Notes under the pieces: generated by a model
Told to the model about the DNA's origin: nothing
The model's database searches: none
What the model saw: the letters and a program-made list of their open reading frames with translations, nothing else
Shown: positions 5,125 through 28,416 of the stretch, piece after piece
Numbering within the stretch: position 1 is the first letter of the stretch
How the letters are laid out: the number at the start of each line of letters is the position of its first letter
Assembly (NCBI GenBank): GCA_036506195.1
Contig: DASXSD010000110.1
Location: 1-41,259, forward strand
From: Candidatus Dormiibacterota bacterium
GTDB lineage: Bacteria; Chloroflexota; Dormibacteria; Dormibacterales; Dormibacteraceae
Reading direction: 5' to 3'
DNA: 41,259 nt
Made by a program: the position numbers and the translations under genes

Positions 5125-6752
5125 GGCAGGATCCCGACCTTGTAGTCGGCGATGATCTCGTTCGCCGCGCGCAGGCCTTCGGACGCGCCGCCCTCCATGT
5201 AGCCCTGGAAGTCCTGCGAGCAATGCTCGCCGGCGAAGTGGCACTTGCCGGTGGTCGGGTCGGGCTGCCGCGCCTTCTCGTACCCCGCGAACTGCGTGTA
5301 CTGGCCGACTTTCCAGTAGGAGTAGGAACCGAGCAGGTAGGGGTTGGCCAGCGGCACATCGAGCGTCGCGCGGCCGTTCCACTGGTGGGCGATGCCGGGG
5401 AACACGGGCTCGAGCTGGCGCAGGAAGGTGCGCGCGAACTTCGCCACCGTGCTGGGATTTGTCGGATCGCCACCGAACGACGCCAGCGGAACGCCGCCGC
5501 CGGTGTAGCCGACCAGGATTCCCGTCGCGCCGTGCTGACCGCGACTGACATCCCAGGTGTTCTGGTAGCCGGTGTCGGAGTTGGTGCTCCCGTTGCCGAG
5601 GCCCCATGGACCCTGCGTGTTCCAGTAGCGGGTGTCGAACTGGAGGTGGAGCTTGGCGTTCTTGCCGTAGCCGAGCTGGGTGATCGCGGTCTGCTTCAGG
5701 GAGTCGAAGCCGGCTGCGCTGTAGTCGAGCGTCCGCAGCACCGAGAACGGAATCGCGAGGATCACCCGGTCGAAGTTGCTGGTCGTGCTCGTGCCGCCGG
5801 TCGCGAGGGTCAGATCGAAGGTGCCGTCCGCCTTGCGCGCGATCCTCGTCAACGCGGTGTTCAGCTGCACGGTGCCCGGCGCGAGGGCGGCGGCGATCGC
5901 CTTCGGGAGGCGCTCGTTGCCGCCGACGATGTGGTAGCGCTCGTCCGATTTGCCGAAGATCAGGAAGTTTCCAGGCTTGGACGAGAAGCCGAGGAGGTAG
6001 ATGAGGTTCAGAGAGCTCTGCTCCTTGGTGATGTTCCCGTACTCGATGTTGTAGGCGACGTCGAGGAGCTGGCCCATCGAGCTCGAATGGCCGCCAGGGA
6101 CTCGGGTCTCGATCCAGTCGTAGATGCTCATGTTGTCGAGCACCCGGCCGGCGTCTGTGAAGTTGTTGTACAGGGTGGGATAGCTGGCGGCGTTGACGTC
6201 CTTCTTGACGTTGTTCCACACCGGGTTGAAGTCGGCCTGGGCCTCGTCGTCGGTGTAGTAGTCACCGAAGAAGTAGTTGGTGTCGGTCGAGTGGACCGGC
6301 TGGGCGGCGATCAGGTCCGTCGTGGCCAGCTTGAAACGGTTCGCCAGGCCGAGGATCGTCTTGTGACCGCTGTCGATCAGCTCGCCGCAGTGCTCGCTGA
6401 CCTGGCCGTTGAGCCAGGACGTGGTGTCGGAGTGCATGCGGCCACCGACCCGGTTGGAGGCCTCGTAGACGGTCGAGGTGATGCCCGCGTCCTGGAGGGT
6501 GAGCGCTGCGTTGAGACCGGCGATGCCGCCGCCGATGATGGCGATCCGGCCCTGCTGGGTCGACGGCGCAGCAAATGCAGGCACCGGCACGTTCAAGGCC
6601 GCCGCGCCCATGGTGGCGCCGGTGACCTTCAGGAAGTCCCGCCGCGTCAGACGCGCCTTGCGGATCTCGGCGATTGTGCGACCTGATCGCTCGGCGTCTT
6701 CGAAATCGCCGAACAGTTCCTGGAGCCGTCTCAGCAGCGTGCTGCGGGCCAT
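5121..6752 (-). CDS. Tat-exported FAD-dependent amine oxidase family protein
   Basis: Twin-arginine signal LTRRDFLKVTGATMGAAAL...AFA, followed by the dinucleotide fold IAIIGGGIAGLNAAL...YEASNRVGGR and a flavin amine-oxidase-like C-terminus (HFAGEH). ATG at 6752 is preceded by AGGAGG 8 nt upstream and is preferred over the track start 6788. Confidence 0.85.
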   Translation of the reverse strand: MARSTLLRRLQELFGDFEDAERSGRTIAEIRKARLTRRDFLKVTGATMGAAALNVPVPAFAAPSTQQGRIAIIGGGIAGLNAALTLQDAGITSTVYEASNRVGGRMHSDTTSWLNGQVSEHCGELIDSGHKTILGLANRFKLATTDLIAAQPVHSTDTNYFFGDYYTDDEAQADFNPVWNNVKKDVNAASYPTLYNNFTDAGRVLDNMSIYDWIETRVPGGHSSSMGQLLDVAYNIEYGNITKEQSSLNLIYLLGFSSKPGNFLIFGKSDERYHIVGGNERLPKAIAAALAPGTVQLNTALTRIARKADGTFDLTLATGGTSTTSNFDRVILAIPFSVLRTLDYSAAGFDSLKQTAITQLGYGKNAKLHLQFDTRYWNTQGPWGLGNGSTNSDTGYQNTWDVSRGQHGATGILVGYTGGGVPLASFGGDPTNPSTVAKFARTFLRQLEPVFPGIAHQWNGRATLDVPLANPYLLGSYSYWKVGQYTQFAGYEKARQPDPTTGKCHFAGEHCSQDFQGYMEGGASEGLRAANEIIADYKVGILP

Positions 6753-8898: not shown

Positions 8899-8974
8899 TG
8901 GAGCGGGAGACGGGACTCGAACCCGCTACCTCAACCTTGGGAAGGTCGCGCTCTGCCAGGTGAGCTACTCCCGC
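8899..8974 (-). tRNA. tRNA-Gly (anticodon CCC), CCA encoded
   Basis: The reverse complement reads GCGGGAG-TA-GCTC-ACCTGGC-AGAGC-G-CGACC-TTCCCAA-GGTTG-AGGTA-GCGGG-TTCGAGT-CCCGT-CTCCCGC-T-CCA. It forms a complete cloverleaf with a 7-bp acceptor stem, a TTCGAGT T-loop and anticodon loop TT-CCC-AA. Confidence 0.93.
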
Positions 8975-11542: not shown

Positions 11543-13606
11543 ATGCGCGTGTTGGACGAACTAAATCAATTCGCTTACGACCTGCTGTGGACCTGGCAGC
11601 CGCGAATCGAGGCTCTGTTTCGCGCGCTCGACCCCGAGCTATGGAAATCGACCCGCGAAAATCCGGTGCTGCTCATCCAGCAGCTCGGCGAGGAAGGAGT
11701 CCAGAAGGCCTGCGAGCGAGAAGAGGTGCGCCAGGCCTTCGACAGCGCCCGGGCGGCTTACCGCGAGTACTACGACCGCAATCCGAGGTTCATGGACGCG
11801 CAGGCGCCGCTGGCCATCGCGTATTTCTCGCTCGAGTTCGGGCTCTCGGAGTGCTTGCCGATCTACTCGGGCGGCCTTGGGGTCCTGGCGGGCGACCACT
11901 TGAAGGCGACCAGCGACCTCGGGCTTCCCCTGGTCGCGGTCGGACTTCTCTACAAGCAGGGTTTCGGCAGGCAGGAGATCGACGCAAGCGGCCGCCAGGT
12001 CGAGGTCTACTTCGAGAACCGAGGCTCGGACCTGCCCGTGCGCAAGCTCGACGGAGTCGAGGTTGAGGCACCGATAGGCGCGCGCAACGTGCGCATTGCC
12101 GTCTGGCGCGCTCAGGTTGGACGGGTGCCCCTTTTCCTCCTCGACACCGACCTCGAGGCGAACCCCAACGACCTGCGCACCATCACCGACCGCCTCTACG
12201 TGCCGGAACCGGACCGACGACTGCGTCAGGAGATCGTGCTTGGGATCGGCGGTGTCCGGATGCTGCGCGCGCTGGGCCTCGACTCCGGCGTGTTCCACCT
12301 CAACGAGGGACACAGCTTCCTGTGTGCGATCGAGCGCATCCGCGAGCTTCGCGCCTCGCGCCAGATGACACTCGAGGAGGCGCGCCTTGTCGCACGCGCG
12401 GGCATCGTCTTCACGACACACACGCCGATCGCGGCGGGCAGCGACTACTTCGACGCCGGCCTGGTGTGGGATCTGCTCGGGCCGTATCTCACGCAGGTCG
12501 GCATCTCATTCGACCGCTTCATGGACCTCGGCCGCCAGCGGCCCGGTGACCCTCGCGAGCGGTTGTGCACGACGTACGCCGCGCTGCGGCTGGCCGACCA
12601 GTCTGTCGGTGTCAGCCGGCTCCACGGCGCTGTCTCGCGCCGGCTCTGGAAGGACGCGTGGAAAGGACTTCCGGACAGCCAGGTCCCGATCGGATCGGTG
12701 ACCAACGGCGTCCACATGCCGACGTGGGTCGCCCAGGACATCGCGGGCCTGCTCAGCCGGTACGTGGGCCCGGACTGGTGGGACCTGGATCCTGCCGACG
12801 GACGGTGGCATGCGGTCTACGAGATTCCCGCGGCCGAGCTGTGGGCGATCCATGGGGAGCTCAAACGGCGCCTGCTGGAGCTCGTCAAGGAGCGCACCGA
12901 GACTCCGCACGAGATCGACGTGAACGCGCTGACCATTGGGTTCGGCCGGCGATTCGCCCCCTACAAGCGCGCCAACCTTCTGCTCAGAGACCGCCCGCGG
13001 CTGACCAAGCTGCTTCGCAACTCGAGGCGGCCGGTGCAGATCCTGTTCGCGGGCAAGTCGCATCCCGCGGACCAGGCGGGCAAGGACATCGTCGCGGGCA
13101 TCGTCGCGCTGGCGCGCGAGGAGCCTCGCGTCATCTTTCTGAAGGACTACGACATCGCGCTGGCGCGCCACCTCGTCCAGGGTGCAGACGTGTGGTTGAA
13201 CAACCCGCGCCGCTTTCTGGAGGCGAGCGGCACGAGCGGGATGAAGGCCGGCGCGAACGGCGCCATCAACGTCAGTGTCCTCGACGGATGGTGGGACGAG
13301 GCGTACCGGCCGGAGTTCGGATGGGCGATCCCGTCGGGGGCCACCCTCGACCGGCAGGACATCGACGACGTCGCCGAGGCGGAGGGTCTGTACCGGCTGC
13401 TCGAGCGAGAGGTCGTGCCGCTCTATTACACGCGCGATGAGTCAGGCATCCCGCGACGCTGGGTCGAGATGATGAAAGCCTCGATGCGAAACGTCGTCAC
13501 ACAGTTCGCGGCGCGACGGATGGTGATCGACTACTTCAACAGCGCGTACGGGCCCGGCGCGCGCCGGGTCGAACAGCTTCGACTACTACCCGACTGGGGC
13601 GGCTAA
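11543..13606 (+). CDS. glgP: Alpha-glucan (glycogen/maltodextrin) phosphorylase, GT35, short bacterial type
   Basis: FSLEFGLSECLPIYSGGLGVLAGDHLKATSDLGLPLVAVGLLYKQGF and the PLP-lysine region EASGTSGMKAGANGA are diagnostic of alpha-glucan phosphorylases. Confidence 0.9.
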   Translation: MRVLDELNQFAYDLLWTWQPRIEALFRALDPELWKSTRENPVLLIQQLGEEGVQKACEREEVRQAFDSARAAYREYYDRNPRFMDAQAPLAIAYFSLEFGLSECLPIYSGGLGVLAGDHLKATSDLGLPLVAVGLLYKQGFGRQEIDASGRQVEVYFENRGSDLPVRKLDGVEVEAPIGARNVRIAVWRAQVGRVPLFLLDTDLEANPNDLRTITDRLYVPEPDRRLRQEIVLGIGGVRMLRALGLDSGVFHLNEGHSFLCAIERIRELRASRQMTLEEARLVARAGIVFTTHTPIAAGSDYFDAGLVWDLLGPYLTQVGISFDRFMDLGRQRPGDPRERLCTTYAALRLADQSVGVSRLHGAVSRRLWKDAWKGLPDSQVPIGSVTNGVHMPTWVAQDIAGLLSRYVGPDWWDLDPADGRWHAVYEIPAAELWAIHGELKRRLLELVKERTETPHEIDVNALTIGFGRRFAPYKRANLLLRDRPRLTKLLRNSRRPVQILFAGKSHPADQAGKDIVAGIVALAREEPRVIFLKDYDIALARHLVQGADVWLNNPRRFLEASGTSGMKAGANGAINVSVLDGWWDEAYRPEFGWAIPSGATLDRQDIDDVAEAEGLYRLLEREVVPLYYTRDESGIPRRWVEMMKASMRNVVTQFAARRMVIDYFNSAYGPGARRVEQLRLLPDWGG
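13583..13606 (+). repeat. 24-nt direct repeat, outer copy (last 7 codons plus stop of glgP)
   Basis: CTACTACCCGACTGGGGCGGCTAA recurs as CTACTGGCCGACTGGGGCGGCTGA at 13787..13810, matching at 21 of 24 positions. Confidence 0.85.
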
Positions 13607-13786
13607 ACCTATGAGAGGAAACCCGGATGGTTTCCTCTCATCGGCCGGGCGCTGGGCGCCGGGCCTGCTCTCCTCCCGGTATAAGGTTCGGTCTTGACCA
13701 AGTAGCCTTCCACCGTCAACGTCTGGCGACCGAAAGGCATAGTTGCGGCCGACGAGACGTCGGCCGCCAAAGCACGGCCTGGGAGC
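13607..13786 (+). repeat. ~180-nt structured non-coding element, copy E1 (candidate ncRNA or miniature mobile element)
   Basis: Alignable over its full length to the reverse complement of 17488..17666. It contains a perfect 13-bp hairpin (13611..13641: ATGAGAGGAAACC-CGGAT-GGTTTCCTCTCAT), a GC-rich middle hairpin, and a 10-bp hairpin GCGGCCGACG-AGA-CGTCGGCCGC. No conserved reading frame is shared with E2. Confidence 0.7.
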
Positions 13787-13810
13787 CTACTGGCCGACTG
13801 GGGCGGCTGA
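13787..13810 (+). repeat. 24-nt direct repeat, inner copy (its antisense encodes the last codons plus stop of GH57-GlgA)
   Basis: See 13583..13606. Read on the minus strand it gives ...SAAPVGQ-stop. Confidence 0.85.
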
Positions 13811-16800: not shown

Positions 16801-17482
16801 GCAGCTGAATCTGGGGGTTGGCGCTGCGCGCGGAGTCGACGTGGCAGATCAGCGGAAGGATCGGATGGTAGTAGGGCGAGAAGGTGAGCTCGGCCTGCCC
16901 CCGGTCGGCAACCTCCCGATATTTGGGGATGACGCTGCGTATGCGTTCGAGCTGCGCGGCGAACAGGATCGACTTGTCCTCTTCGCTGAAATCGCGGTCC
17001 TTGCGCTTCAGCTCAGCCAGCCGTGGGTCGGATTCGACCCACACCGGGTCGCACCACGCGAGGTTGAACCACACCTGCACGTCGCGCATGTCCTCGTTGG
17101 TGAACTGCGCGTCCGCGGCGCGCGAGGCAAGCTCCAGATAGCGCGACGACTGCTGGACCCGGAGCGCCCGCGGCGACTCTCGCATCCAGCGCAGCACGAA
17201 CTCCCGCTCTTCCGCCGAGAGGTCGCCGGCCGCCCGCTTGCTCAAGTTCAGGAAGAGATCGACCGACTCCTCCTTGCCGTAGTCCTCGATCTGAGCGAGC
17301 AGCGAAGGCACGAGGTTGAAGGTGGCCCGGATCTTCGGGTAGCCGTCGAGCAGGGCGGGCATCTTGTAGTAGTCCTTGGCCGACCGCAGACGGACCCAGG
17401 GCAGCAGGTACGTGCTGGTGAGATCGTCCTTGTAGTAGGGCTGATGCATGTGCCAGATGAAGGCGATCTGCAGAGGTTTCAT
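13787..17482 (-). CDS. glgA: Fusion protein: N-terminal GH57 alpha-glucan-active domain plus C-terminal GT5 glycogen/starch synthase (GlgA)
   Basis: The N-terminus MKPLQIAFIWHMHQPYY, GMWPSEMAV and IALDGENAWE are GH57 signature regions. From about residue 745, KVLVATAELAPFAKLGGVSDVAAALSKELRHLGHDVRVVLPRY and the rest match GlgA. It is one uninterrupted 1231-codon frame. Confidence 0.85.
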   Translation of the reverse strand: MKPLQIAFIWHMHQPYYKDDLTSTYLLPWVRLRSAKDYYKMPALLDGYPKIRATFNLVPSLLAQIEDYGKEESVDLFLNLSKRAAGDLSAEEREFVLRWMRESPRALRVQQSSRYLELASRAADAQFTNEDMRDVQVWFNLAWCDPVWVESDPRLAELKRKDRDFSEEDKSILFAAQLERIRSVIPKYREVADRGQAELTFSPYYHPILPLICHVDSARSANPQIQLPERHFSHREDAERQIELGMGLFERMLGRRPKGMWPSEMAVGEAVIGLAEKAKLDWMISDEEVLARSLEGHFNRDEHLYQPKRIAREGSSVAMVFRDSQLSNVIGFDYQRLSSVDAARDLMGRLRRIGDAQGDGDFLVVIALDGENAWEFYPRDGHDFLNAVYTELEASSDMVTTTVSDFLAEHPPQQQLHHLHTGSWIGASLDTWIGDPEHNVAWDLLAETRDWLDSQLQQRPKDSQQAALAWREILITEGSDWFWWFSRKHDSGMDPIWDNQFRLHLRNVYKLMGARAPARLYQPIIKRAPTPERGVPAASISPQSRHDPAWAQAGYYLVGSGFGALHRPAGVVERVFYGNDEQNVYFRIDSPRPGSDLEAQNMEFWLYCGGPPATDGDGDVDLPLPQSALAELGFEPAYVVRITPRAQGGTVSVARVIESQSRAIAESRWDVDDPFAVAIPFRELGKHPGDAFEVALVVSREGKDIEVVPPSGALGLRVPGQAPAIDVEHAPPLKVLVATAELAPFAKLGGVSDVAAALSKELRHLGHDVRVVLPRYRQVDIGRYELHPVVTHLAVPLGAEKMPATIFEGRLGEIPVYFVDCPQLYDRDGMFGFGDDDARSVYFCRAVLEMLPALEFFPDVMHIHDWYGALIPNLLEQVYEGEAYADIASTLTIHNLSAQGVFGFGALMLAGLQEWGLIRLGIPGLDNVVNVLGRGIHFADVINTVSERYASEIQTPEYGEGLDELLRQNTHKLHGILNGIDYEIFDPARDPNIPHHYSADAPQAKALCRAALRVELGLEDSNKPLCAIVSRFYDVKGFDLIEQAMPELLQLGLQVVVIGTGDRRYEDMFRRWASELPRQVAVAIGFDAALAQRIYAGADMLWMPSRFEPGGLAQLIALRYGTIPVVRATGGLADTIRDYDPVGQKGNGFRFGPYDPWQFFAAVVRAAETFRHPNVWAWLVQHDMQEDVSWSRSALKYVQLYRAAIGAHRERRGPVEAPEPGQKPSAAPVGQ

Positions 17483-17487
17483 GTGGC
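17440..17487 (-). repeat. 48-nt direct repeat, gene-proximal copy (5 nt upstream plus first 43 nt of GH57-glgA)
   Basis: The sense strand reads GCCACATGAAACCTCTGCAGATCGCCTTCATCTGGCACATGCATCAGC. It is identical to 17667..17714 except for one synonymous position (17471 C versus 17698 A on the plus strand). Confidence 0.9.
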
Positions 17488-17709
17488 GAAGCTGATCTCG
17501 TGGCTATGGCGGCCGAGTTCACCTCGGCCGCAACCCGCATCCCAATTGCGTCGCCCAGCGCCGCATGGGGACACTAATTCGTTAATCCCAACCCCGGGAA
17601 GGTGAGCAGGGCCGCGAGCCGGGCGAGCGGCCCGATGAGCGGAAACCGGAGGTTTCCGCTCATTTAGCTGATGCATGTGCCAGATGAAGGCGATCTGAAG
17701 AGGTTTCAT
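17479..17709 (-). CDS. 76-codon relay/leader ORF created by the duplicated GH57 start and read through element E2
   Basis: It starts at the duplicated ATG (17709), 5 nt after the stop of the upstream glycosyltransferase gene. It has no in-frame stop across E2, and its TGA overlaps the ATG of GH57-glgA as ATGA (17479..17482). Beyond the first 14 codons the sequence is arginine/glycine-rich and not protein-like. Confidence 0.3.
   Translation of the reverse strand: MKPLQIAFIWHMHQLNERKPPVSAHRAARPARGPAHLPGVGINELVSPCGAGRRNWDAGCGRGELGRHSHEISFAT
17488..17666 (-). repeat. ~180-nt structured non-coding element, copy E2 (inverted relative to E1)
   Basis: The reverse complement aligns with E1 block by block: ATGAG.GGAAACC / GGTTTCC.CTCATCGG, CTGCTC.CCT.CCCGG, CTGG.CGAC, GTTGCGGCCGA....TCGGCCGCCA.AGC.AC. 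Its hairpins are 17635..17663 (13 bp) and GCGGCCGAG-GTGAA-CTCGGCCGC. Confidence 0.7.
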
Positions 17710-17714
17710 GTGGC
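17667..17714 (-). repeat. 48-nt direct repeat, distal copy (immediately follows the stop codon of the upstream glycosyltransferase gene)
   Basis: See 17440..17487. Confidence 0.9.
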
Positions 17715-19052
17715 TCAGCTCAATGATCGCAGTGTCCGTATCCGGCTCACCCGTTTGGGCGGCGGAGGGGTCGGCAGCTTCACAGCCTGGCGCTCGGCGG
17801 CGTATTCCACCCTCTGCAGCAGCTGCTCGATCACCTTCTCCCAGACGTAGTCCCGGGCGGTGATCCGACCACGCCTGCGGAGATGTGCGGCGATGCGCGG
17901 CCTCTCCTTCAAGATCGAGAGCTCCGTCACGATCTCGAGCGGGTCGTCAGTCTCCAGGACCAGGGCGTTGCGATACGGCTCGGCGTAGTCCTCGCCGGTC
18001 GAGCCGGTGACGGCGATTCCACCGGCGGCCATGACCTCGAGGCCGACCAGTCCGAACGGCTCGTGGCCGGAGTTCGCGAGCACGGCGTCGGACGCCGCGT
18101 AGAGGACACGGACGAGCGACTCGTCGATGAAGCTGGTCACATTTACCAGGTCGACCCCATTGGCATCGCGCAGCACCGCAGCCAGGCTGGGCGCGTCGGC
18201 GGGTGCCTTCACGCTGCCCACCGCGAGTCCCAGGTGTTCGGCGACGCCCATCACCTCGGCGCCGTGCGGCTCGCGCCCTCCGCGGACGACGAGCTTCACC
18301 TGGCCGCCCCGACGTTTGAGCTCGGCGGCGGCAGTGACCGCCATGAGCCAGCGCTTGTCGGGATCGAAGCGACCGATCTTGAACCAGAGATGGCCGGCGC
18401 CGGCGGCCGCCCTGACTTCACCAACCGCCTGGTGATCCGGCTCGGCGAGCGAGTCGGCTGGAATTCCGTTCGGGATCACGATCGGGTTCTGGGCCCACTC
18501 CCACATGCGGAACTTCATGTAGCGGCTGACGGTCGTCACTGTGCTCGCGAGGTTCAGCGGGGCCCAATCGATGCGGTTGAAGCCATACGTGTTGTTGGCG
18601 TTCCACAGCATGACGACACGGTTGCGCAGGCCTCGGTAATACAGCGTGTCCGAGATGAGCCGCATCGACCATGACGTGTGCCACTCCTCGCCGAGCACGA
18701 CCACGTGCTTGCCCGCTTCGACCGCCGGCGCGATCACCTTGTCGATGAGGCTCGAGGGGAGGCTGTAGTTCCAGTCTCGGATCTTTCCTTCCTCGTCGTC
18801 GTAGACGCCACCGCGGTGCTGGGCGGAGATCCACTGACACCAGCGCCTGAGCTGCAGCCGGCCTCCCTCGAGCGCCTCCTCACCCGGGAGGTCGGGGTCG
18901 CCACAGAAATAGAGGTATGTCGGATAGCCCAGCCGCGCCAGCGAGCGCGACAGCCCCTTGACCCTGACGCCGAGCCCACCGGCCTGGCTGAAGACGTCCG
19001 GCCCTTCGAAGCTGAGAATGACGAAGACAGTCCGGGCCGGGTCCAGATTCAA
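17715..19052 (-). CDS. GT-B fold retaining glycosyltransferase (GT4/GT5-like, glycogen-synthase-like N-terminus)
   Basis: VFVILSFEGPDVFSQAGGLGVRVKGLSRSLARLGY resembles the N-terminal G-rich loop of archaeal-type glycogen synthases and GT4 enzymes, and the C-terminal half has the E-x7-E-like region (HEPFGLVGLEVMAAG). The track ORF extends to 19469 but there overlaps the IMPase gene in another frame. TTG at 19052 overlaps the IMPase stop as TTGA. Confidence 0.75.
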   Translation of the reverse strand: MNLDPARTVFVILSFEGPDVFSQAGGLGVRVKGLSRSLARLGYPTYLYFCGDPDLPGEEALEGGRLQLRRWCQWISAQHRGGVYDDEEGKIRDWNYSLPSSLIDKVIAPAVEAGKHVVVLGEEWHTSWSMRLISDTLYYRGLRNRVVMLWNANNTYGFNRIDWAPLNLASTVTTVSRYMKFRMWEWAQNPIVIPNGIPADSLAEPDHQAVGEVRAAAGAGHLWFKIGRFDPDKRWLMAVTAAAELKRRGGQVKLVVRGGREPHGAEVMGVAEHLGLAVGSVKAPADAPSLAAVLRDANGVDLVNVTSFIDESLVRVLYAASDAVLANSGHEPFGLVGLEVMAAGGIAVTGSTGEDYAEPYRNALVLETDDPLEIVTELSILKERPRIAAHLRRRGRITARDYVWEKVIEQLLQRVEYAAERQAVKLPTPPPPKRVSRIRTLRSLS

Positions 19053-19810
19053 CGCGATGCCTTGAGGATCTGCATCGCCTCTCGATGGAGCTCCGGGCTC
19101 GAGGCACACAGGAGCGTCGAGCTGGTTTCGAGGTTGCAACGCTGCCTGGCGATCGGGTCGCCTTCGACTGTCGTCGCCACGCCGCCGGTTTCGGAGAGGA
19201 TGAGCAAGCTCGCCGCCATGTCGAAGACACGCACCGGCGCCGGCGCGCAGAACACGTCGAAAGCGCCGGCGCTCGTGAGCGCGATCGAGATCGCCATCGA
19301 GCCCAGTATGCGGACCTTCGCCGCTCGCTCGACCAGCGGCCGCGCGAGCTGCAGATTGCGCGGATTGCTCTCTAGACCGAGAAGCTGGATCCGACTGGCG
19401 AGACCGCGCCTCGCGGCGACGAGCGGCTCTCCCGCATGCCACGCGCCCTGTTCTCGCACCGCGGTCCATGTCTCGCCGGTGTTCAGGCTGAGCACGAAGC
19501 CGGCGTACACATCCGAGACGAGTGGCCCGTCGAGGACGGCGAGCATAAGGCCGAAAAGCGGCACGCCCTGCTTGGCGTTGAGGCTGCCGTCGACGGGGTC
19601 GACGAGAATCAGCGGATAGTCGGCGCCGAAGTTCCGGTAGCCGGCCTCTTCGGAGAGGACCGAGAACGTCTCTCCCCGCTCACCAAGCCCGGCCAGCTCG
19701 CTGAAGACGACCGCCTCCGCGGCGCGGTCGAGCTCCATCGTCGTGTCGCCACCCGCGCCAACGCTCAGCTGCACGCGGCCTGCCTCGGTGCCCGACAGCG
19801 GCAGCACCAC
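19049..19810 (-). CDS. Inositol monophosphatase / fructose-1,6-bisphosphatase family phosphatase
   Basis: LILVDPVDGSLNA (the DPxDG metal-binding motif) and VFDMAASLLIL (WD-like motif) are present. 253 aa. Confidence 0.85.
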   Translation of the reverse strand: MVLPLSGTEAGRVQLSVGAGGDTTMELDRAAEAVVFSELAGLGERGETFSVLSEEAGYRNFGADYPLILVDPVDGSLNAKQGVPLFGLMLAVLDGPLVSDVYAGFVLSLNTGETWTAVREQGAWHAGEPLVAARRGLASRIQLLGLESNPRNLQLARPLVERAAKVRILGSMAISIALTSAGAFDVFCAPAPVRVFDMAASLLILSETGGVATTVEGDPIARQRCNLETSSTLLCASSPELHREAMQILKASR

Positions 19811-23206: not shown

Positions 23207-23956
23207 ATGCAGGAACAGACACTTCAGCTTGCGATCGATTCGATTCGAGTTCGCTTCGGCAGCCACGCGCTGACGCGGGCGGCGGAGCTGCCGCCGCCTC
23301 AGCCCTGGTCGACCAAAACGCCGATCGACAAGCTGACCGGGATCGGCGGAATGCCCCGAGGCCGTCTCTCGCTGTTCACAGGAACTGGCACCTGCGGCAA
23401 GCTCACGGTCGCCCTCGCCCTGCTTGCGAACGCCACCCACGAGTTCGCGCACGCGGTGGTGATCGACAGCGGCGGCTTCGATCCCAGGATGCTCACCTCC
23501 TTCTCTCCTGAGCTTGGCGCGCTGACCGTGGTCCGCGCGCCGGCTCTTGAGGTCGCCGGCGAGGCGGCGGCGACACTGGCCCGAGCAGGCGCGGGCTTCC
23601 TTCTATTGATGGGCCCCATCCCGGAGCACTGGCTGGGACCGCTCGAATCCGGCGCCAACCGTTCCGGAACCGTCGTGGTCGGTGTGGTCGAGGCGCCGGA
23701 ACGCGCCCTTGCCCACGCGTCGAGCCTCAGCCTCGGGTTCTCGCGCACCGAGTGGGCATGGGAACGCGGCCAGCTGGTCGGCCTCCGGGTGTCGGTGCGA
23801 TGCGTGAAAAACCGCGTCGCGCCTCCACTGGGCGAGACACAGCTGGAGATTCGCTATTCGCTCGGCACCCAAAAGCTGACCGACTTCGTGCCTGGCATCA
23901 CAGAGGCACCGTTTCATTTCGAGGAGGCCAAGCCACGCCAGTCTGCTGCGGGCTAA
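23207..23956 (+). CDS. imuA: ImuA/ImuA'-like RecA-fold protein of the mutagenesis cassette
   Basis: RecA/SulA-like core (LTGIGGMPRGRLSLFTGTGTCGKLTVAL, a degenerate Walker A). It is the first gene downstream of the LexA box and directly upstream of imuB and dnaE2. Confidence 0.75.
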   Translation: MQEQTLQLAIDSIRVRFGSHALTRAAELPPPQPWSTKTPIDKLTGIGGMPRGRLSLFTGTGTCGKLTVALALLANATHEFAHAVVIDSGGFDPRMLTSFSPELGALTVVRAPALEVAGEAAATLARAGAGFLLLMGPIPEHWLGPLESGANRSGTVVVGVVEAPERALAHASSLSLGFSRTEWAWERGQLVGLRVSVRCVKNRVAPPLGETQLEIRYSLGTQKLTDFVPGITEAPFHFEEAKPRQSAAG

Positions 23957-25325
23957 CTGGTCACCTCGAGCTCGCCCGGCGGCCGGACCTGTATGGGACG
24001 CCGGTCATCATCGGCCGCTGGGACGAGCACGTGCTCGCCGCGTCGGAGGAGTCGCTGCCGTTCGGCGTCGTGCCCGGGATGGCGCTGCGCCAGGCCGAGC
24101 ACCTCTGTCCACAGGCGACTTTCGTGCTGCCTGATGAAGAGGCGACCGCTCGCATTCGCGAGCTGATCTCCGCTGCGCTCTACGACCTCGCCCCGGTCGT
24201 CGAGGTTCGCGACGGAGGTATCGCCTGGCTCGACCTGGGTGGCGTCGCGCACCCCGGAGAATCGATCCGCGAGGCGCGCCGGCGATTGTTGAAGGCGATC
24301 GGCCGGGAACCGCGACTGGGTCTTGCACCAGGTCCGTTCTCGGCACGACTCGCCGCCGCCCGCGCACGCCCCGGGCGCCTGCTCCAGGTCGATGACGCGC
24401 GGACCTTTCTCGCGCCTCTTCCCTCTCGCGAGCTCCCCCTTGACGCCGAGCACCTCGAACGGCTCGACCTCCTTGGTCTACGCACACTCGCAGCTGTTGG
24501 GGCAATCGGCCCTCGCGAGCTGGAAAGCCAGCTGGGTCGGGTAGGGCGTCATGCGGTGCTGCTCGCCCGAGGTCTCGAGCCTGATCAGCTCGAGCCGTGG
24601 CGGCCACCTCTTTTCACGAGCGCTCATCGGCAGTTCGGGGCCCCAGTCGAGGATCGCGAAGCGTTGCTCTTCGTTGCGCGGGCGTTGTGCGGTGACCTTG
24701 CCGATGAGCTCGGGCTTCGCGGAGCAGGCGCCAAGCAGGTGCGAGTGCGACTCGCCGCCGAGTCGGGTGAGGACGAACAGAGGGAGTCAATAGTCCGCCA
24801 TCCGTTGAGCAGCAGCGCCGAGCTTTTCGGGCTCGTCGGGGCGTGGATCAAGGAATGGCGGCCACGCGCGCCGATCACCGAGCTTTGGATCGAGCTGCCG
24901 GTGCTCGAAGGCGCCGGTCGCCGGCAGCTGAGGTTGTGGGCGGGCGGCGACGGAAGCAGTGAAGAGGTCGCCGCCGCGATGGAGCGTTTGCAGGAGCGCT
25001 TCGGCGACGACGTGATCTGGAAGCTAACTCCTCCCCATTCATGGGGAGGTGGCGCCGCAGGCGCCGGAGGGGCTTGGTGACTCGCTTGCTCTCGCCGCCC
25101 GCGGCAATCGACGTCACGCTCGGACCCGGCGGTGCTCCCGAATCGATCATCGGGGCCTTCACGGGCTCGATTGACCCCATCGCGCGCTGGAAAGTCGAGA
25201 CGACGTGGTGGACCAGGCCGGTCGTCCGCGAGTACTGGAAGGTGGTGCTCAACAGCAACCTGCTGTGCGAGCTCTATCACGACATGTCGAGCAACGGCTG
25301 GTTCATCGAGCGCGTTTATGACTGA
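23935..25325 (+). pseudogene. imuB: imuB (Y-family polymerase-like), with its reading frame broken by repeat copy B and no canonical start codon
   Basis: The N-terminal and middle parts are in the frame of track ORF 23752..25080 (...LELARRPDLYGTPVIIG...MALRQAEHLCPQ...), which ends at a TGA at the 3' edge of the repeat. The conserved C-terminal domain (RLLSPPAAIDV...RWKVETTWW...WFIERVYD) is in a different frame (track ORF 25041..25325), and its stop overlaps the dnaE2 ATG by 8 nt. Confidence 0.6.
25023..25078 (+). repeat. REP-like two-hairpin repeat, copy B (inside imuB)
   Basis: GCTAACTCCTCCCCATTCATGGGGAGGTGGCGCCGCAGGCGCCGGAGGGGCTTGGT. The hairpins are CTCCCC-ATTCAT-GGGGAG and GGCGCC-GCA-GGCGCC. 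It is nearly identical to copy C, including the leading GCTAACT. Confidence 0.8.
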
Positions 25326-28300
25326 GGCGCCGTACGTCGAGCTGCACAGCCACTCCAACTTTTCTTTCCTGGACGGCGGCTCACATCCATACGAGATGGC
25401 GCTGCGAGCCGCGGAGCTCGAGATGCCGGCGCTCGCGATCACCGACCGCGGTGGCGTCTACGGAGCCGTCCGCCACCTCCAGGCCTGCCGCAAGCTCGGC
25501 GTCAAGCCGATCATCGGGAGCGCGTTGGAGGTCGATGGCGAGGAGCTGATCCTCATCGCGCGCAACCTCAAGGGGTACTCCAACCTCTGCCGTCTGCTCA
25601 GCGTCGCCCACGCCGACCAACCCAAAGGCGAAGCGCGCACGACTCTCGCGACGGTCGCCGAGCATCGCGGTGATCTCTTCTATCTCAGCCCGACCGACCA
25701 CGAAGAGCGCCTTCGCAACCTCCAGGACGCCCTGGGCCGCGAGAACGTATTCAGCGAGCTCCACCACCACCTGCGACCGGAGGACCAGTGGGTGCTCGAG
25801 GGTCGCGCCGCCATGGCGGGCAGCTGTGGAGCGGCGGTTGTGGCCACCAACCAGGTCCACTACCACGTCGCTGCGCGGCGAAGGCTGCACGACGTGATGG
25901 TGGCCATCCGCCATCGGGCAACGCTCGAAGAGGCGCAACCCCACCTCCTCTCCAACTCGGAGCATCACCTCAAAGGCGGCGCCGAGCTGCGCCGGCTCTT
26001 CAAAGGACACGAAGAGGCGCTGGCGACGCCGTGGGAGATCGCGCAACAGTGCGACGTCGACCTCGACTTCCGGAAAGTCCGCTTCCCGGGCTACCCGGTG
26101 CCCGCTGGCGAAACGCCCTTCTCGTTCCTCTACAAGCTCTGCTTCGAGGGTCTGCGCGAGCGCTACCACCCCATCACCTCGGCCGTCACCCGCCGCCTGC
26201 AGCACGAGCTCGAGGTGATCGAGAAGACCGGACTCGCCGAGTTCTTCCTCATCAACTGGGACCTGATGCGCTTCGCGCGAGACCACGGCGTGCCGGGTCA
26301 GGGCCGCGGCTCGGCGGCCGACTCGATCGTCGCCTACGTGCTGGGCATCACTCGCGTCGACCCCATCGAGCACAACCTTCTCTTCGAGCGCTTTCTGCAC
26401 GAAGAGATGACCAGCACGCCCGACATCGACATCGATTTCTCGACCGAGCACCGCGAGCAGGTCATCCAGTACATCTACGAGAAGTACGGCTGGGAGCGGA
26501 CCGGCATGGTCTGCAACGTGGTCACCTTCCAGCCGCGGATGGCGATCCGGCAAGTCGGCAAAGCCCTCGGCTTCTCAGCAGAGCTTCTGGACCGCCTGGC
26601 CAAAGGCGTGGACCGGTGGTTCACGGAAGACGTCGAGGACTCGATGACGGGCGCCGTCCCGCCTCCCGACATGAGACCGCAGAGCTGGCAGCAGTTCCTC
26701 GAACTGTGCCGGGAGGTGATCGAGTTTCCTCGACACCTTTCGATCCACAACGGCGGCATGCTGGTCACGGGCGAGCCGCTGGTCGACATCGCCCCGGTCG
26801 AGCCCGCGACGATGGAAGGACGGCGCGTCGTCCAGTTCAACAAGGACGACGTCGAAGACCTGGGCCTGATCAAGATGGACATGCTCGGCCTGCGCACGCT
26901 TTCGGTGGTCGCCGAGGCGCTTGACCTGATCAAGGACACGACAGGCACCAGGCCTGACCTCGACCGGCTTGCCCTGAACGACCCCGCTGTCTACGAGATG
27001 TGCGGCGAGGCCGATACCATCGGCGTGTTCCAGATCGAGTCCCGCGCGCAGATGCAGACGCTGCCTCGAACAAGGCCCCAGACCTTCAACGACCTGGTGG
27101 TCGAGGTTGCGATCATCCGGCCCGGGCCCATCCAGGGCAACGCGGTACATCCGTACATCCGCCGCAAGCAGGGCCGCGAGCCGGTCACCTACGCGCATCC
27201 CCTGCTAGAGCCGATCCTCGAGGACACGCTGGGCGTGATCCTCTACCAGGAGCAGATCATCGAGATCGCGATGCATGTCGCCGGCATGAAGCCTGGCCGT
27301 GCAGACGGCTTTCGCCGAGCCATGACACGCCATCTCAATCGCGTCGAGATGTCATCACTCGAAGACGAGTTCATCAGCGGCTGCCTCGCCAATGATGTGC
27401 CACGCGCGGTCGCCGACCAGCTCTTCGCCGCGGTGCAGGGTTTTGCGGTCTATGGCTTTTGCCGCTCGCACGCCGCCGCGTTCGCGCGAACCTCCTACGA
27501 GACGGCGTGGATGAAGCTGCACCACCCGGTGGAGTTCGGCTGCGGCCTCCTGAACAACCAACCCATGGGCTTCTACCACCCGAGTGTGCTGGTCGAAGAC
27601 TTGAAGCGTCACGGACTGCAAGCGCTGCCGGTCGACATCAATCGCTCCGACGTCCGCTGCCTGCCGGAGCGCTTTGACGCCGGGCTCGCGATGCGGATCG
27701 GTCTCAACTACGTGCGCGACCTTGGCGAGGAAGGACGCAAGGCCATCGTCGAGGAGCGCGGCCGAGGCGGGATCTATCGCTCCTTCGACAACTTCCTCAG
27801 CCGGCTGCGCGGCGGGCCCATCGGTCCGCGCGCTGTCCGCAACCTGGTCATGGTCGGCGCTTTCGATGCTCTCGGCCGGCCCAGACGTGAGCTCGTATGG
27901 GGATGGCAGGAACGGTGGCATGGCAAAGGCTTGCGCCGCGGGATCGACAAGCAAACAGAGCTCAGTCTTGGCGCCACGGCGCCTGAACTGCCAGGCGTGG
28001 ACGCCTTCGACGCAAACCAGCTCGAGTACAGGATCTCCGACCTCTCGACCGGGCATCACCTCATCCACTTCTGCCGCGACCGGCTGCGCGAGATGGGAGC
28101 GCTCGAAACCAACAAGCTGCCCAAGATCCGCAACAACCAGGCGGTCCGGGTGGCGGGCCTGGTCATCACGCGCCAGGCGCCGGCCACGGCGAACCGGATC
28201 CGCTTTTTCACCCTGGAGGATGAGTTCGGGCAGGTCAACGTGACCATCAAACCCGAGGTCTACGAGCGCTATCGCCAGGTCGCCAACAGGCAACCGATCC

Positions 28301-28416
28301 TGATCATCGAAGGAGTGATGCAGCGGCAGGATGGCGTTCACTCTGTCCTCGCGAGGCACATCGAGGCGCTCCAGGGCGTCCCCCGACCTGCGCAGCGCTC
28401 GCACGACTACCGCTGA
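25318..28416 (+). CDS. dnaE2: Error-prone DNA polymerase III alpha-like subunit DnaE2
   Basis: PHP domain start MTEAPYVELHSHSNFSFLDGG plus polymerase core motifs (GRGSAADSIVAYVLGIT, DIDIDF, IRPGP, YQEQ). 1032 aa, matching the short DnaE2 architecture, and located downstream of imuA/imuB. The track ORF start 25132 includes non-homologous leader sequence. Confidence 0.92.
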   Translation: MTEAPYVELHSHSNFSFLDGGSHPYEMALRAAELEMPALAITDRGGVYGAVRHLQACRKLGVKPIIGSALEVDGEELILIARNLKGYSNLCRLLSVAHADQPKGEARTTLATVAEHRGDLFYLSPTDHEERLRNLQDALGRENVFSELHHHLRPEDQWVLEGRAAMAGSCGAAVVATNQVHYHVAARRRLHDVMVAIRHRATLEEAQPHLLSNSEHHLKGGAELRRLFKGHEEALATPWEIAQQCDVDLDFRKVRFPGYPVPAGETPFSFLYKLCFEGLRERYHPITSAVTRRLQHELEVIEKTGLAEFFLINWDLMRFARDHGVPGQGRGSAADSIVAYVLGITRVDPIEHNLLFERFLHEEMTSTPDIDIDFSTEHREQVIQYIYEKYGWERTGMVCNVVTFQPRMAIRQVGKALGFSAELLDRLAKGVDRWFTEDVEDSMTGAVPPPDMRPQSWQQFLELCREVIEFPRHLSIHNGGMLVTGEPLVDIAPVEPATMEGRRVVQFNKDDVEDLGLIKMDMLGLRTLSVVAEALDLIKDTTGTRPDLDRLALNDPAVYEMCGEADTIGVFQIESRAQMQTLPRTRPQTFNDLVVEVAIIRPGPIQGNAVHPYIRRKQGREPVTYAHPLLEPILEDTLGVILYQEQIIEIAMHVAGMKPGRADGFRRAMTRHLNRVEMSSLEDEFISGCLANDVPRAVADQLFAAVQGFAVYGFCRSHAAAFARTSYETAWMKLHHPVEFGCGLLNNQPMGFYHPSVLVEDLKRHGLQALPVDINRSDVRCLPERFDAGLAMRIGLNYVRDLGEEGRKAIVEERGRGGIYRSFDNFLSRLRGGPIGPRAVRNLVMVGAFDALGRPRRELVWGWQERWHGKGLRRGIDKQTELSLGATAPELPGVDAFDANQLEYRISDLSTGHHLIHFCRDRLREMGALETNKLPKIRNNQAVRVAGLVITRQAPATANRIRFFTLEDEFGQVNVTIKPEVYERYRQVANRQPILIIEGVMQRQDGVHSVLARHIEALQGVPRPAQRSHDYR

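Follow-up and report, generated by a model that had tools for sequence, protein, structure and literature searches.

How does a gene stay intact after a repeat element has broken it at its fifteenth codon? This question is raised by a 41,259-nt stretch of DNA from a Candidatus Dormiibacterota bacterium (contig DASXSD010000110.1, positions 1 to 41,259, assembly GCA_036506195.1), which is referred to here as the window. On its minus strand, GH57-glgA, which encodes a fusion of a GH57 domain with a starch synthase, follows a glycosyltransferase (GT) gene, and a copy of a hairpin-rich repeat that we call element E lies between them. This copy is designated E2; a second copy, E1, lies at the other end of GH57-glgA. 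We propose that E2 is a small non-autonomous mobile repeat, that its insertion is old and duplicated the start of GH57-glgA, and that gene conversion has kept the two resulting starts alike ever since. To this explanation as a whole we assign a probability of roughly 0.75.

The same 48 nt occur on both sides of E2, with 47 of the 48 positions matching (Table 1). The sole mismatch (plus-strand C at 17471, A at 17698) reads CTG versus CTT in the sense direction, both encoding Leu-4, and the identity drops off sharply at either end. The duplicated unit is composed of a 5-nt spacer (GCCAC), the ATG and 13 more codons (MKPLQIAFIWHMHQ), and the first base of codon 15. E2 therefore breaks GH57-glgA at codon 15, and the gene is intact only via the second start on the side proximal to it. 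The distal copy opens on the base next to the TGA of the GT gene. The original prediction, made from the window alone, had described the two repeats, their one synonymous difference, the 179 nt between them and the position of the distal repeat straight after the GT stop codon, and the coordinates bear out each of these. Because a near-perfect 48-nt repeat occurs within 227 nt, an origin by chance is excluded.

To survey the alleles of this site, metagenomes were scanned with the N-terminal 300 residues of GH57-GlgA and the close relatives were sorted. Locus L066, whose GH57-GlgA and GT proteins are 94% and 92% (over 445 aa) identical to those of the window, is free of the element: it reads ...ATTGAGC-TGA-TCGG-ATG-AAA...CATCAGCCG, and the 3′ end of its GH57-glgA is likewise uninterrupted. 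The ancestral arrangement that had been predicted (GT stop codon, 5 nt, ATG) is seen directly in this locus, with a spacer of 4 nt. At least eight further relatives are also empty at the GH57 start, so that the uninterrupted arrangement, for which a comparison of genomes had been suggested, is found repeatedly. At least 10 relatives are filled: their start is duplicated, and an E in sense orientation follows ..CA(C/T)CAG(C).. (L033, L059, L060, L067, L068/L071, L069, L085, L091, and L110). Other insertions lie close by: E is inserted after codon 8 in L106 and in the 3′ end of the upstream gene in L087, an inverted E abuts the ATG in L084 and L042, and two different E copies stand in tandem in the GH57 intergenic region of L059. 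Deletion footprints of E are present in L070, L074/75, L076, and L088. Two GH57 starts are almost adjacent in L088 (positions 225-330, ..TGGCAC-TC-ATGACC..), with no E between them, while in L070, L074, and L076 (~1440-1500) part of the orphan start is left and a piece of the E tail comes after it. Because the upstream gene differs among loci, the association of E is with the GH57 start itself.

A search of a species-representative genome set, seeded with the conserved first hairpin of E, yielded 65 loci with at least 70 copies, nearly all of them in metagenome-assembled genomes (MAGs) of Candidatus Dormibacterota and often several per MAG; some of the MAGs are filed under older or doubtful names. 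Element E is a GC-rich, non-coding, hairpin-rich, multi-copy sequence of ~165-215 nt, and its open reading frames (ORFs) are at chance level (22.7% versus 22.1% in shuffles). Hairpin 1 has the consensus ATGAG(C/A)GGAAACC-loop-GGTTTCC(G/T)CTCAT in the sense direction and is followed by CGG. Hairpin 2 is variable, with ~45 extra nt in a long form of the element. Downstream of it are an invariant box CCTGCTC(A/T)CCTTCC, a semi-conserved A+T-richer stretch, ~45 variable nt, and hairpin 3 (GCGGCCGRG-loop-CYCGGCCGC), which is followed by the tail CC..GC.ACGC. All three hairpins show compensatory Watson-Crick changes, with nine pairs altered on both sides among 32 sequences; one pair of hairpin 1 (columns 9/29) covaries as C-G/A-T in 19/13 sequences. 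An apparent covariation between position 9 of hairpin 1 and position 7 of the conserved box 2 (Table 1) was rejected as a subfamily correlation, as the implied pairings fall in different registers. E2 folds well on both strands (z-scores −4.0 and −5.5). Wobble pairs gave no signal for the transcribed strand, being too few, with stem changes nearly all from one Watson-Crick pair to another.

Searches for relatives of E returned little. Rfam, run at gathering score on the whole window, gave no match to E, and its best match to E2 at E ≤ 10 was sX13, with 20.6 bits against a gathering score of 50. No terminal inverted repeats (TIRs) were found in E: its inverted repeats are the internal hairpins only, and the termini are not complementary. 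A scan of viral contigs gave one match, an unrelated hairpin in a contig of 37% GC. Within the window, the profile search finds exactly two copies; a candidate third copy, a box-2 match near position 5336, was rejected on that ground. No description of E was found in the literature collection searched, and a full-text search with the hairpin sequence gave no relevant match. The family is apparently an undescribed, small, non-autonomous bacterial repeat.

Copies without the hairpin-3 half are common (e.g., L019, L025, and L044). Tandem arrays are the exception among E copies: head-to-tail arrays of two to five copies with a period of ~168-177 nt occur at L030 1-300, L031 1-440, L034 6000-6310, and L050 5257-6000. 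The second copy of the L034 array repeats an 11-nt flank (GCGCTAAGAAT), which suggests repeated insertion at one junction. Several arrays are located at contig ends, and E therefore probably breaks assemblies. Two further observations concern the folding of E2. Over 16 nt, the segment made up of its box 2 and the neighboring arm of hairpin 2 (GCGGCCCTGCTCACCT, 17600-17615) shows 81% complementarity to hairpin 3 (AGGTGAACTCGGCCGC, 17509-17524), a pairing that, by eye, is not conserved in the other E subfamily. A Shine-Dalgarno (SD)-like GAGGTGA is present in the loop of hairpin 3; box 2 is similar to the 16S anti-SD sequence.

Duplication of host sequence is not restricted to the GH57 site. When the 80-250 nt upstream of each E copy were compared with the downstream sequence, with mismatched pairs as controls, 12 copies at a minimum of eight unrelated loci had abutting direct repeats of host sequence of 11-98 nt; the controls scored mostly 6-10. 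The repeats are short in L006 (11/11), L034 (11/11), E1 (15/15 in the core, 21/24 over 24 nt), L017 (27/27), and L033b (28/29), of middle length in L029 (32/33), L060 (33/33), L013 (43/44), and E2 (47/48), and long in L059 (53/53), L033a (55/56), and L039 (98/98). Across ~0.9 Mb of loci, nearly every exact direct repeat of at least 20 nt within 5 kb flanks an E, apart from two loci in which the repeats are coding. In every case examined, a gene end lies within the duplicated stretch. E lies between convergent genes with originally overlapping ends in L039, L013, L029, and E1; the duplication spans a stop codon and the next start in L017, L006, and L034; and it spans the first codons of the gene at the GH57 site. 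Between the upstream repeat and hairpin 1 there are 0-7 variable bases, and 0-25 between the tail and the downstream repeat. No target-site motif is common to either duplication boundary. Because flanking duplication is a property of the family, the duplication is tied to the element. A duplication of the 48-mer unrelated to E, which had been named as a possible refutation, is not what the comparison of unrelated loci reveals.

The second copy in the window, which the original prediction had reported, provides an independent example at the 3′ end of the same gene. E1 is 75% identical to E2, belongs to a different subfamily, and lies in the inverse orientation between the convergent phosphorylase gene and GH57-glgA. 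Its 24-nt flank corresponds to the 24-nt overlap of the two genes in the empty locus L066 (L066 6173-6196). Since the insertion of E1, the two convergent genes no longer share this segment, each having a copy to itself. At the junction, the stop codon of the phosphorylase gene changed from TGA to TAA; at the 5′ edge of E1, the element supplies a TAA as an in-frame stop. At the position of E1, three relatives (L067 6190-6290, L068 6160-6235, and L069 6165-6195) carry a different short palindromic repeat (..CCGGAGAGTCCGGACTATCC..), in two copies in L067, which may represent a second small element family.

The near-identity of the two starts could mean that E2 newly entered a preferred spot at GH57 and that the 47/48 match is a young target-site duplication. 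The family seems recently active, with near-identical copies within one MAG (L030/L031) and perfect duplications around other copies (L039, L059, and L017). Such a view also accommodates the two different tandem copies in L059, the separate insertion points and orientations around the GH57 start in L106, L087, L084, and L042, and a left duplication boundary that varies among genomes (−5 in the window, −12 to −14 in L068, −16 in L067, and ~0 in L069). The kinship of E2 points the other way. Among ~70 E copies, the six nearest to E2 are all found at the same site in other genomes (78-85% identity). Only the window, L067, L068/L071, and L069 have the hairpin-2 variant GGGCCGCTCGC...GCTCGCGGCCC, and the 5′ junction, at which ..CAGC is followed by TAAATGAG, is common to the window and L067. 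The E bodies of this clade are 86-88% identical and the adjacent GH57 coding DNA is 85-88% identical. Orthology of E2 and a divergence of the E bodies equal to that of the host DNA imply that the insertion predates the split of these lineages; on this sequence evidence, the E2 insertion appears to be old and common to related lineages, and a recent insertion is decidedly unlikely. The divergence of the E1 and E2 bodies, which had been set against the 47/48 identity as a contrast in age, says little, because the two belong to different subfamilies.

If the insertion is old, the similarity of the two starts has to have been maintained. Over 43 nt from the start, the distal and proximal copies differ at one position in the window, L068, and L033, at none in L059, and at three in L067; the GH57 starts of different genomes of the clade differ from one another at 5-8 positions. 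Five other filled loci (L069, L091, L060, L110, and L085) have 4-6 differences between their copies, as expected for an old duplication without homogenization. Moreover, although the genomes that share the hairpin-2 variant are 12-15% apart in adjacent coding DNA and in the E body, the distal copy of each bears the substitutions of its own genome. In the window, the distal spacer GCCAC is the same as the last bases of the proximal spacer (..CTTCGCCAC, which is homologous to ..GCACACC in L069) and does not resemble the empty-site spacers TCGG and ACCG. From the pattern of substitutions, the evidence favors concerted evolution by gene conversion, not recency, as the cause of the 47/48 identity, and the direction of conversion was probably from the proximal to the distal copy. 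Among the three causes originally proposed (a recent event, conversion, or selection on both copies), conversion is thus the favored one and a recent event is not. On its right, the conversion tract would stop where homology ceases at E; on its left, it would be bounded by selection that preserves the GT stop codon, which would explain why the repeat starts exactly after the TGA.

The orphan start in the distal 48-mer now opens an ORF that bridges E2 and ends on the ATGA of the true start (Table 1). A TAA at the 5′ edge of E2 was considered as an in-frame stop and rejected; it is not in frame, and the ORF passes through. A bridging ORF that ends on ATGA is found in 4 of the 11 filled loci (the window, L033, L091, and L110), and in 6 of 11 the frame leading to the proximal ATGA crosses E without a stop codon, versus a chance rate of 0.22. 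Operon overlaps are native to this locus: the TTG start of the GT gene overlaps the stop codon of the upstream inositol-monophosphatase gene (TTGA, 19049-19052), and GT and GH57 are separated by 4-5 nt in empty alleles. Ribosomes could restart at the orphan ATG, read the 76 codons that span E2, and stop at the ATGA where GH57-glgA itself begins. We tentatively suggest, from the geometry of the reading frames, that GH57-glgA may be translationally coupled to the upstream gene in this way, at a likelihood somewhat below even. A sigma-70 scan found no outward promoter at the 3′ end of E; a TANNNT box is weakly enriched at +3 to +10 of that end without a fixed position, and no promoter was assigned.

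The bridging ORF also underlies another view, in which selection, not conversion, holds the copies alike and the distal copy is a functional leader for re-initiation at the true start. The excess of open frames fits this view, and mycobacterial interspersed repetitive units (MIRUs) offer a precedent for ORF-mediated coupling at −4 spacing (PMC12548453). A leader, however, would conserve the start and the frame and not synonymous or spacer nucleotides, at which the copies of the window are identical bar one. Given also that five filled loci tolerate 4-6 differences and that six or seven have no bridging ORF, we regard selection alone as very unlikely.

It is also conceivable that the duplication arose independently of E, by slippage that made a tandem start, and that E settled there later or was recruited as a regulatory module. 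The almost adjacent start copies of L088 would be such a state. They are more simply seen as a deletion footprint, like those of L070, L074, and L076, where parts of the E tail are still present, and long close direct repeats without E are almost never seen in the loci examined; with 12 E copies at eight or more unrelated loci that have exactly abutting duplications, an independent origin is highly improbable. Finally, a collapsed or mis-joined metagenome repeat has a negligible chance of explaining the structure: the exact protein of the window is on record in no other assembly and the contig is thus without an independent replicate, but the repeat is shorter than a read, its copies differ at one base, and more than 10 independent assemblies, which stem from different projects, show the same order of start, E, and start in sequence specific to their lineage (L033, L059, L060, L067-L069, L071, L085, L091, and L110), which rules out an artefact specific to this contig.

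The history that we favor, an old insertion followed by conversion, could have proceeded as follows. Insertion of E would leave a target stretch of 11 to ~100 nt on both sides, most likely because the target strands are opened far apart by an enzyme acting in trans and the gaps are filled by synthesis. A duplication of such length would leave one whole gene end joined to the gene body, and the gene would survive. At this locus, E would have entered codon 15, and a duplicated segment reaching at least to the spacer before the ATG would have rebuilt the proximal start. The two start copies would then have been kept near-identical by gene conversion, and in other lineages E would have been lost either precisely or with footprints left behind.

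Several observations weigh against this history. L066, the closest relative by protein identity, is empty, and an old insertion then needs a loss or recombination in that lineage. E could have re-inserted at the same spot in L033 and L059, which have long-form E copies with duplications of 55/56 and 53/53. About 40 of 55 testable E copies have no duplication of at least 11 nt; those with duplications are presumably a younger or selectively retained minority. Several duplication boundaries fall on stop codons, and part of the apparent insertion geometry could have been shaped later by selection and conversion. The ends of E are blurred, with 0-7 nt of variable sequence at the 5′ junction and 0-25 nt at the 3′ junction, a poor fit to a classical cut-and-paste transposase. 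Pfam annotation identified no transposase, reverse transcriptase (RT), or recombinase in the window, clustering of the ORFs of the 65 loci gave only syntenic housekeeping groups and no autonomous relative or recurrent neighboring enzyme, and no long direct repeats around larger inserts were found in the ~0.9 Mb of loci. As for expression, the excess of bridging ORFs has a nominal P of ~0.007-0.015 that comes from phylogenetically related loci, and more than half of the filled loci do without such an ORF.

For the route of insertion, rough odds can be given. A transposase or integrase acting in trans with widely staggered cuts is a possibility that we hold at somewhat less than even odds. RNA- or cDNA-mediated insertion is doubtful, template switching during replication is unlikely, and some other mechanism is less likely again. 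The absence of TIRs, the imprecise junctions, and the copies that lack hairpin 3 fit a copy-based route (target-primed or template-switching) at least as well as a transposase. More specifically, E might spread by a route undescribed for short bacterial elements, either RNA-templated and target-primed, similar to the short interspersed nuclear elements (SINEs) of eukaryotes, or by copy-choice, with a polarity coupled to upstream transcription or translation; we consider this proposal unlikely. If it were true, the polarity of E behind stop codons would reflect insertion or retention coupled to the expression of the upstream gene, and the long duplications would let E colonize the coding ends of essential genes non-lethally.

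That polarity is pronounced. Of 53 informative copies, 49 have their hairpin-1 side against the end of a co-oriented gene, with the stop codon usually 2-7 nt before the ATGAG of hairpin 1, and the remaining 4 have a divergent start on this side. On the opposite side, a co-oriented start is found at a distance of 9-25 nt in 38 copies, and the end of a convergent gene in 15. Between convergent genes, both orientations of E are found (E1 of the window versus L033b). The polarity could be an insertion preference; it could equally be due to selection, if the hairpins of an inverted E block read-through into the downstream gene.

Table 1. Features of the window around GH57-glgA and the two E copies.
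Feature	Coordinates	Strand	Remarks
Alpha-glucan phosphorylase-like gene, 687 aa, convergent with GH57-glgA	11543..13606	+	Pfam Phosphorylase and DUF3417
E1 left flank copy (CTACTACCCGACTGGGGCGGCTAA)	13583..13606	+	Phosphorylase end and stop
Element E1, between the convergent phosphorylase gene and GH57-glgA	13607..13786	+	Profile match 13611-13774
E1 right flank copy (CTACTGGCCGACTGGGGCGGCTGA)	13787..13810	+	GH57-glgA end on the minus strand, stop 13787-13789
GH57-GlgA fusion (GH57 and GT5/GT1 starch synthase), 1231 aa	13787..17482	−	Pfam PF03065, PF08323, PF00534
Proximal 48-nt copy with functional GH57-glgA start	17440..17487	−	ATG 17480-17482
Bridging ORF, 76 codons, from distal ATG through all of E2	17479..17709	−	TGA overlaps true ATG (ACATGAAA, 4-nt overlap)
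Element E2, 179 nt between the 48-mers	17488..17666	−	Profile match covers 17498-17663
E2 hairpin 3, GCGGCCGAG-GTGAA-CTCGGCCGC, then tail CCATAGCCACG	17509..17531	−	Compensatory changes
E2 box 2, conserved single-stranded, sense CCTGCTCACCTTCCC	17597..17611	−	(Nearly) invariant columns in 32-sequence alignment
E2 hairpin 2, GGGCCGCTCGCC-CGG-CTCGCGGCCC	17609..17633	−	Covarying pairs
E2 hairpin 1, ATGAGCGGAAACC-TCC-GGTTTCCGCTCAT	17635..17663	−	Perfect 13-bp stem, family signature
Distal 48-nt copy (spacer GCCAC, ATG, 13 codons of GH57, 1 nt)	17667..17714	−	Orphan start
GT4-family glycosyltransferase gene, 445 aa	17715..19052	−	Pfam Glycos_transf_1/Glyco_transf_4; TGA 17715-17717

The GT gene was first listed as an ORF of 584 aa (17715-19469), which proved to be an over-extension of the real 445-aa gene. 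Homologues of GH57-GlgA number more than 100 at 79-94% identity and are recorded under the source name Dormibacteraeota glycogen/starch synthase. Elsewhere in the window, a tRNA-Gly(CCC) gene (8899-8974, minus strand) is the only match of Rfam and ARAGORN and is unrelated to E. A gene for a small RecA-fold, ImuA-like protein (23207-23956) lies upstream of one for a polymerase III alpha subunit of the DnaE2 type (25132-28416); with a middle gene that has no annotation, the region 23207-28416 looks like an imuA-imuB-dnaE2 SOS mutagenesis cassette.

The GH57 site represents a natural case in which a mobile element enters a conserved coding sequence without inactivating it, as the duplication rebuilds the end of the gene. 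At the opposite end of GH57-glgA, E splits overlapping convergent genes into independent copies. The locus would also be a compact natural example of concerted evolution, acting between 48-nt repeats that are 179 nt apart. The E family is abundant in a widespread uncultured soil phylum. In practice, gene calling and the prediction of start sites in these MAGs will go wrong at duplicated starts and orphan ORFs, and E copies, several of which are at contig ends, also fragment assemblies. In addition, E is a good starting point for tracing an insertion mechanism yet to be described and for explaining the long repeats of the insertion sequences (ISs) IS1549 and IS1634.

Members of the IS1634 family, which was formerly placed within IS4, are 1.5-2 kb long and have a DDE transposase gene and TIRs. 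The direct repeats of IS1549 and IS1634 are variable, from 8 to 514 bp, and no model has been proposed for them (PMC2266710). For the long duplications of E, they are the known precedent. The duplications of E (11-98 nt) are within this range and equally variable, whereas E itself, at 165-215 nt, is non-coding, has neither a transposase gene nor TIRs, and has imprecise junctions; no related IS was found beside E in the loci examined. Classical MITEs (miniature inverted-repeat transposable elements) have TIRs that match a parent IS, often TA termini, A+T-rich sequence, and short duplications whose length is fixed. Bacterial MITEs (Correia/NEMIS, ERIC, RUP, RPE, and YPAL) are small, multi-copy, folded, mostly intergenic and sometimes intragenic, can be co-transcribed and co-translated with their neighbors, and occupy sites that are filled in some relatives and empty in others (PMC2229807; PMC3184786). 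E, which works as a MITE or a MIRU does, resembles them in being small, multi-copy, non-autonomous, and strongly folded, in lying mostly between genes and sometimes within them, in that it may be transcribed and translated together with its neighbors, in having filled and empty sites, and in having no transposase gene. It differs from them in its GC-rich sequence, in its polarity relative to the upstream gene, in having neither TIRs nor TA termini, and in its long duplications of variable rather than short fixed length.

MIRUs are 40-100 bp long, have 4-nt direct repeats, and usually form tandem minisatellites in Mycobacterium. They are GC-rich and co-transcribed between operon genes, and an internal ORF overlaps the flanking genes and couples them at −4 spacing (PMC12548453; PMC3184786). 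The 76-codon ORF of the window, ending in ATGA, has the same geometry; E is longer, belongs to Dormibacterota, and has a coupling ORF only in some copies at the GH57 site. Repetitive extragenic palindromic sequences and bacterial interspersed mosaic elements (REP/BIME, REPIN) are palindromes of 21-65 nt, often in inverted pairs, that are associated with a RAYT (Y1) transposase, and the size and the three-hairpin architecture of E do not fit them. Group IIC introns are ribozymes with an RT ORF and leave no target duplication. They are reported to lie in one orientation downstream of gene ends, after terminator stem-loops (PMC1702495). E is also found in one orientation just downstream of gene ends, but it has no ORF and no group II or other Rfam match, and it leaves duplications.

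Eukaryotic SINEs, which move by target-primed reverse transcription, are non-autonomous, have no TIRs, and have imprecise ends with additional junction bases and target duplications of variable length. No such mechanism is known for a short bacterial element. E shares these traits with SINEs, its ends being sometimes truncated as well; it differs from them in having no A-rich tail, and the window has no RT. Taken together, E lacks TIRs, leaves long duplications of variable length, and is strictly polar behind stop codons, a combination of features that fits no described class.

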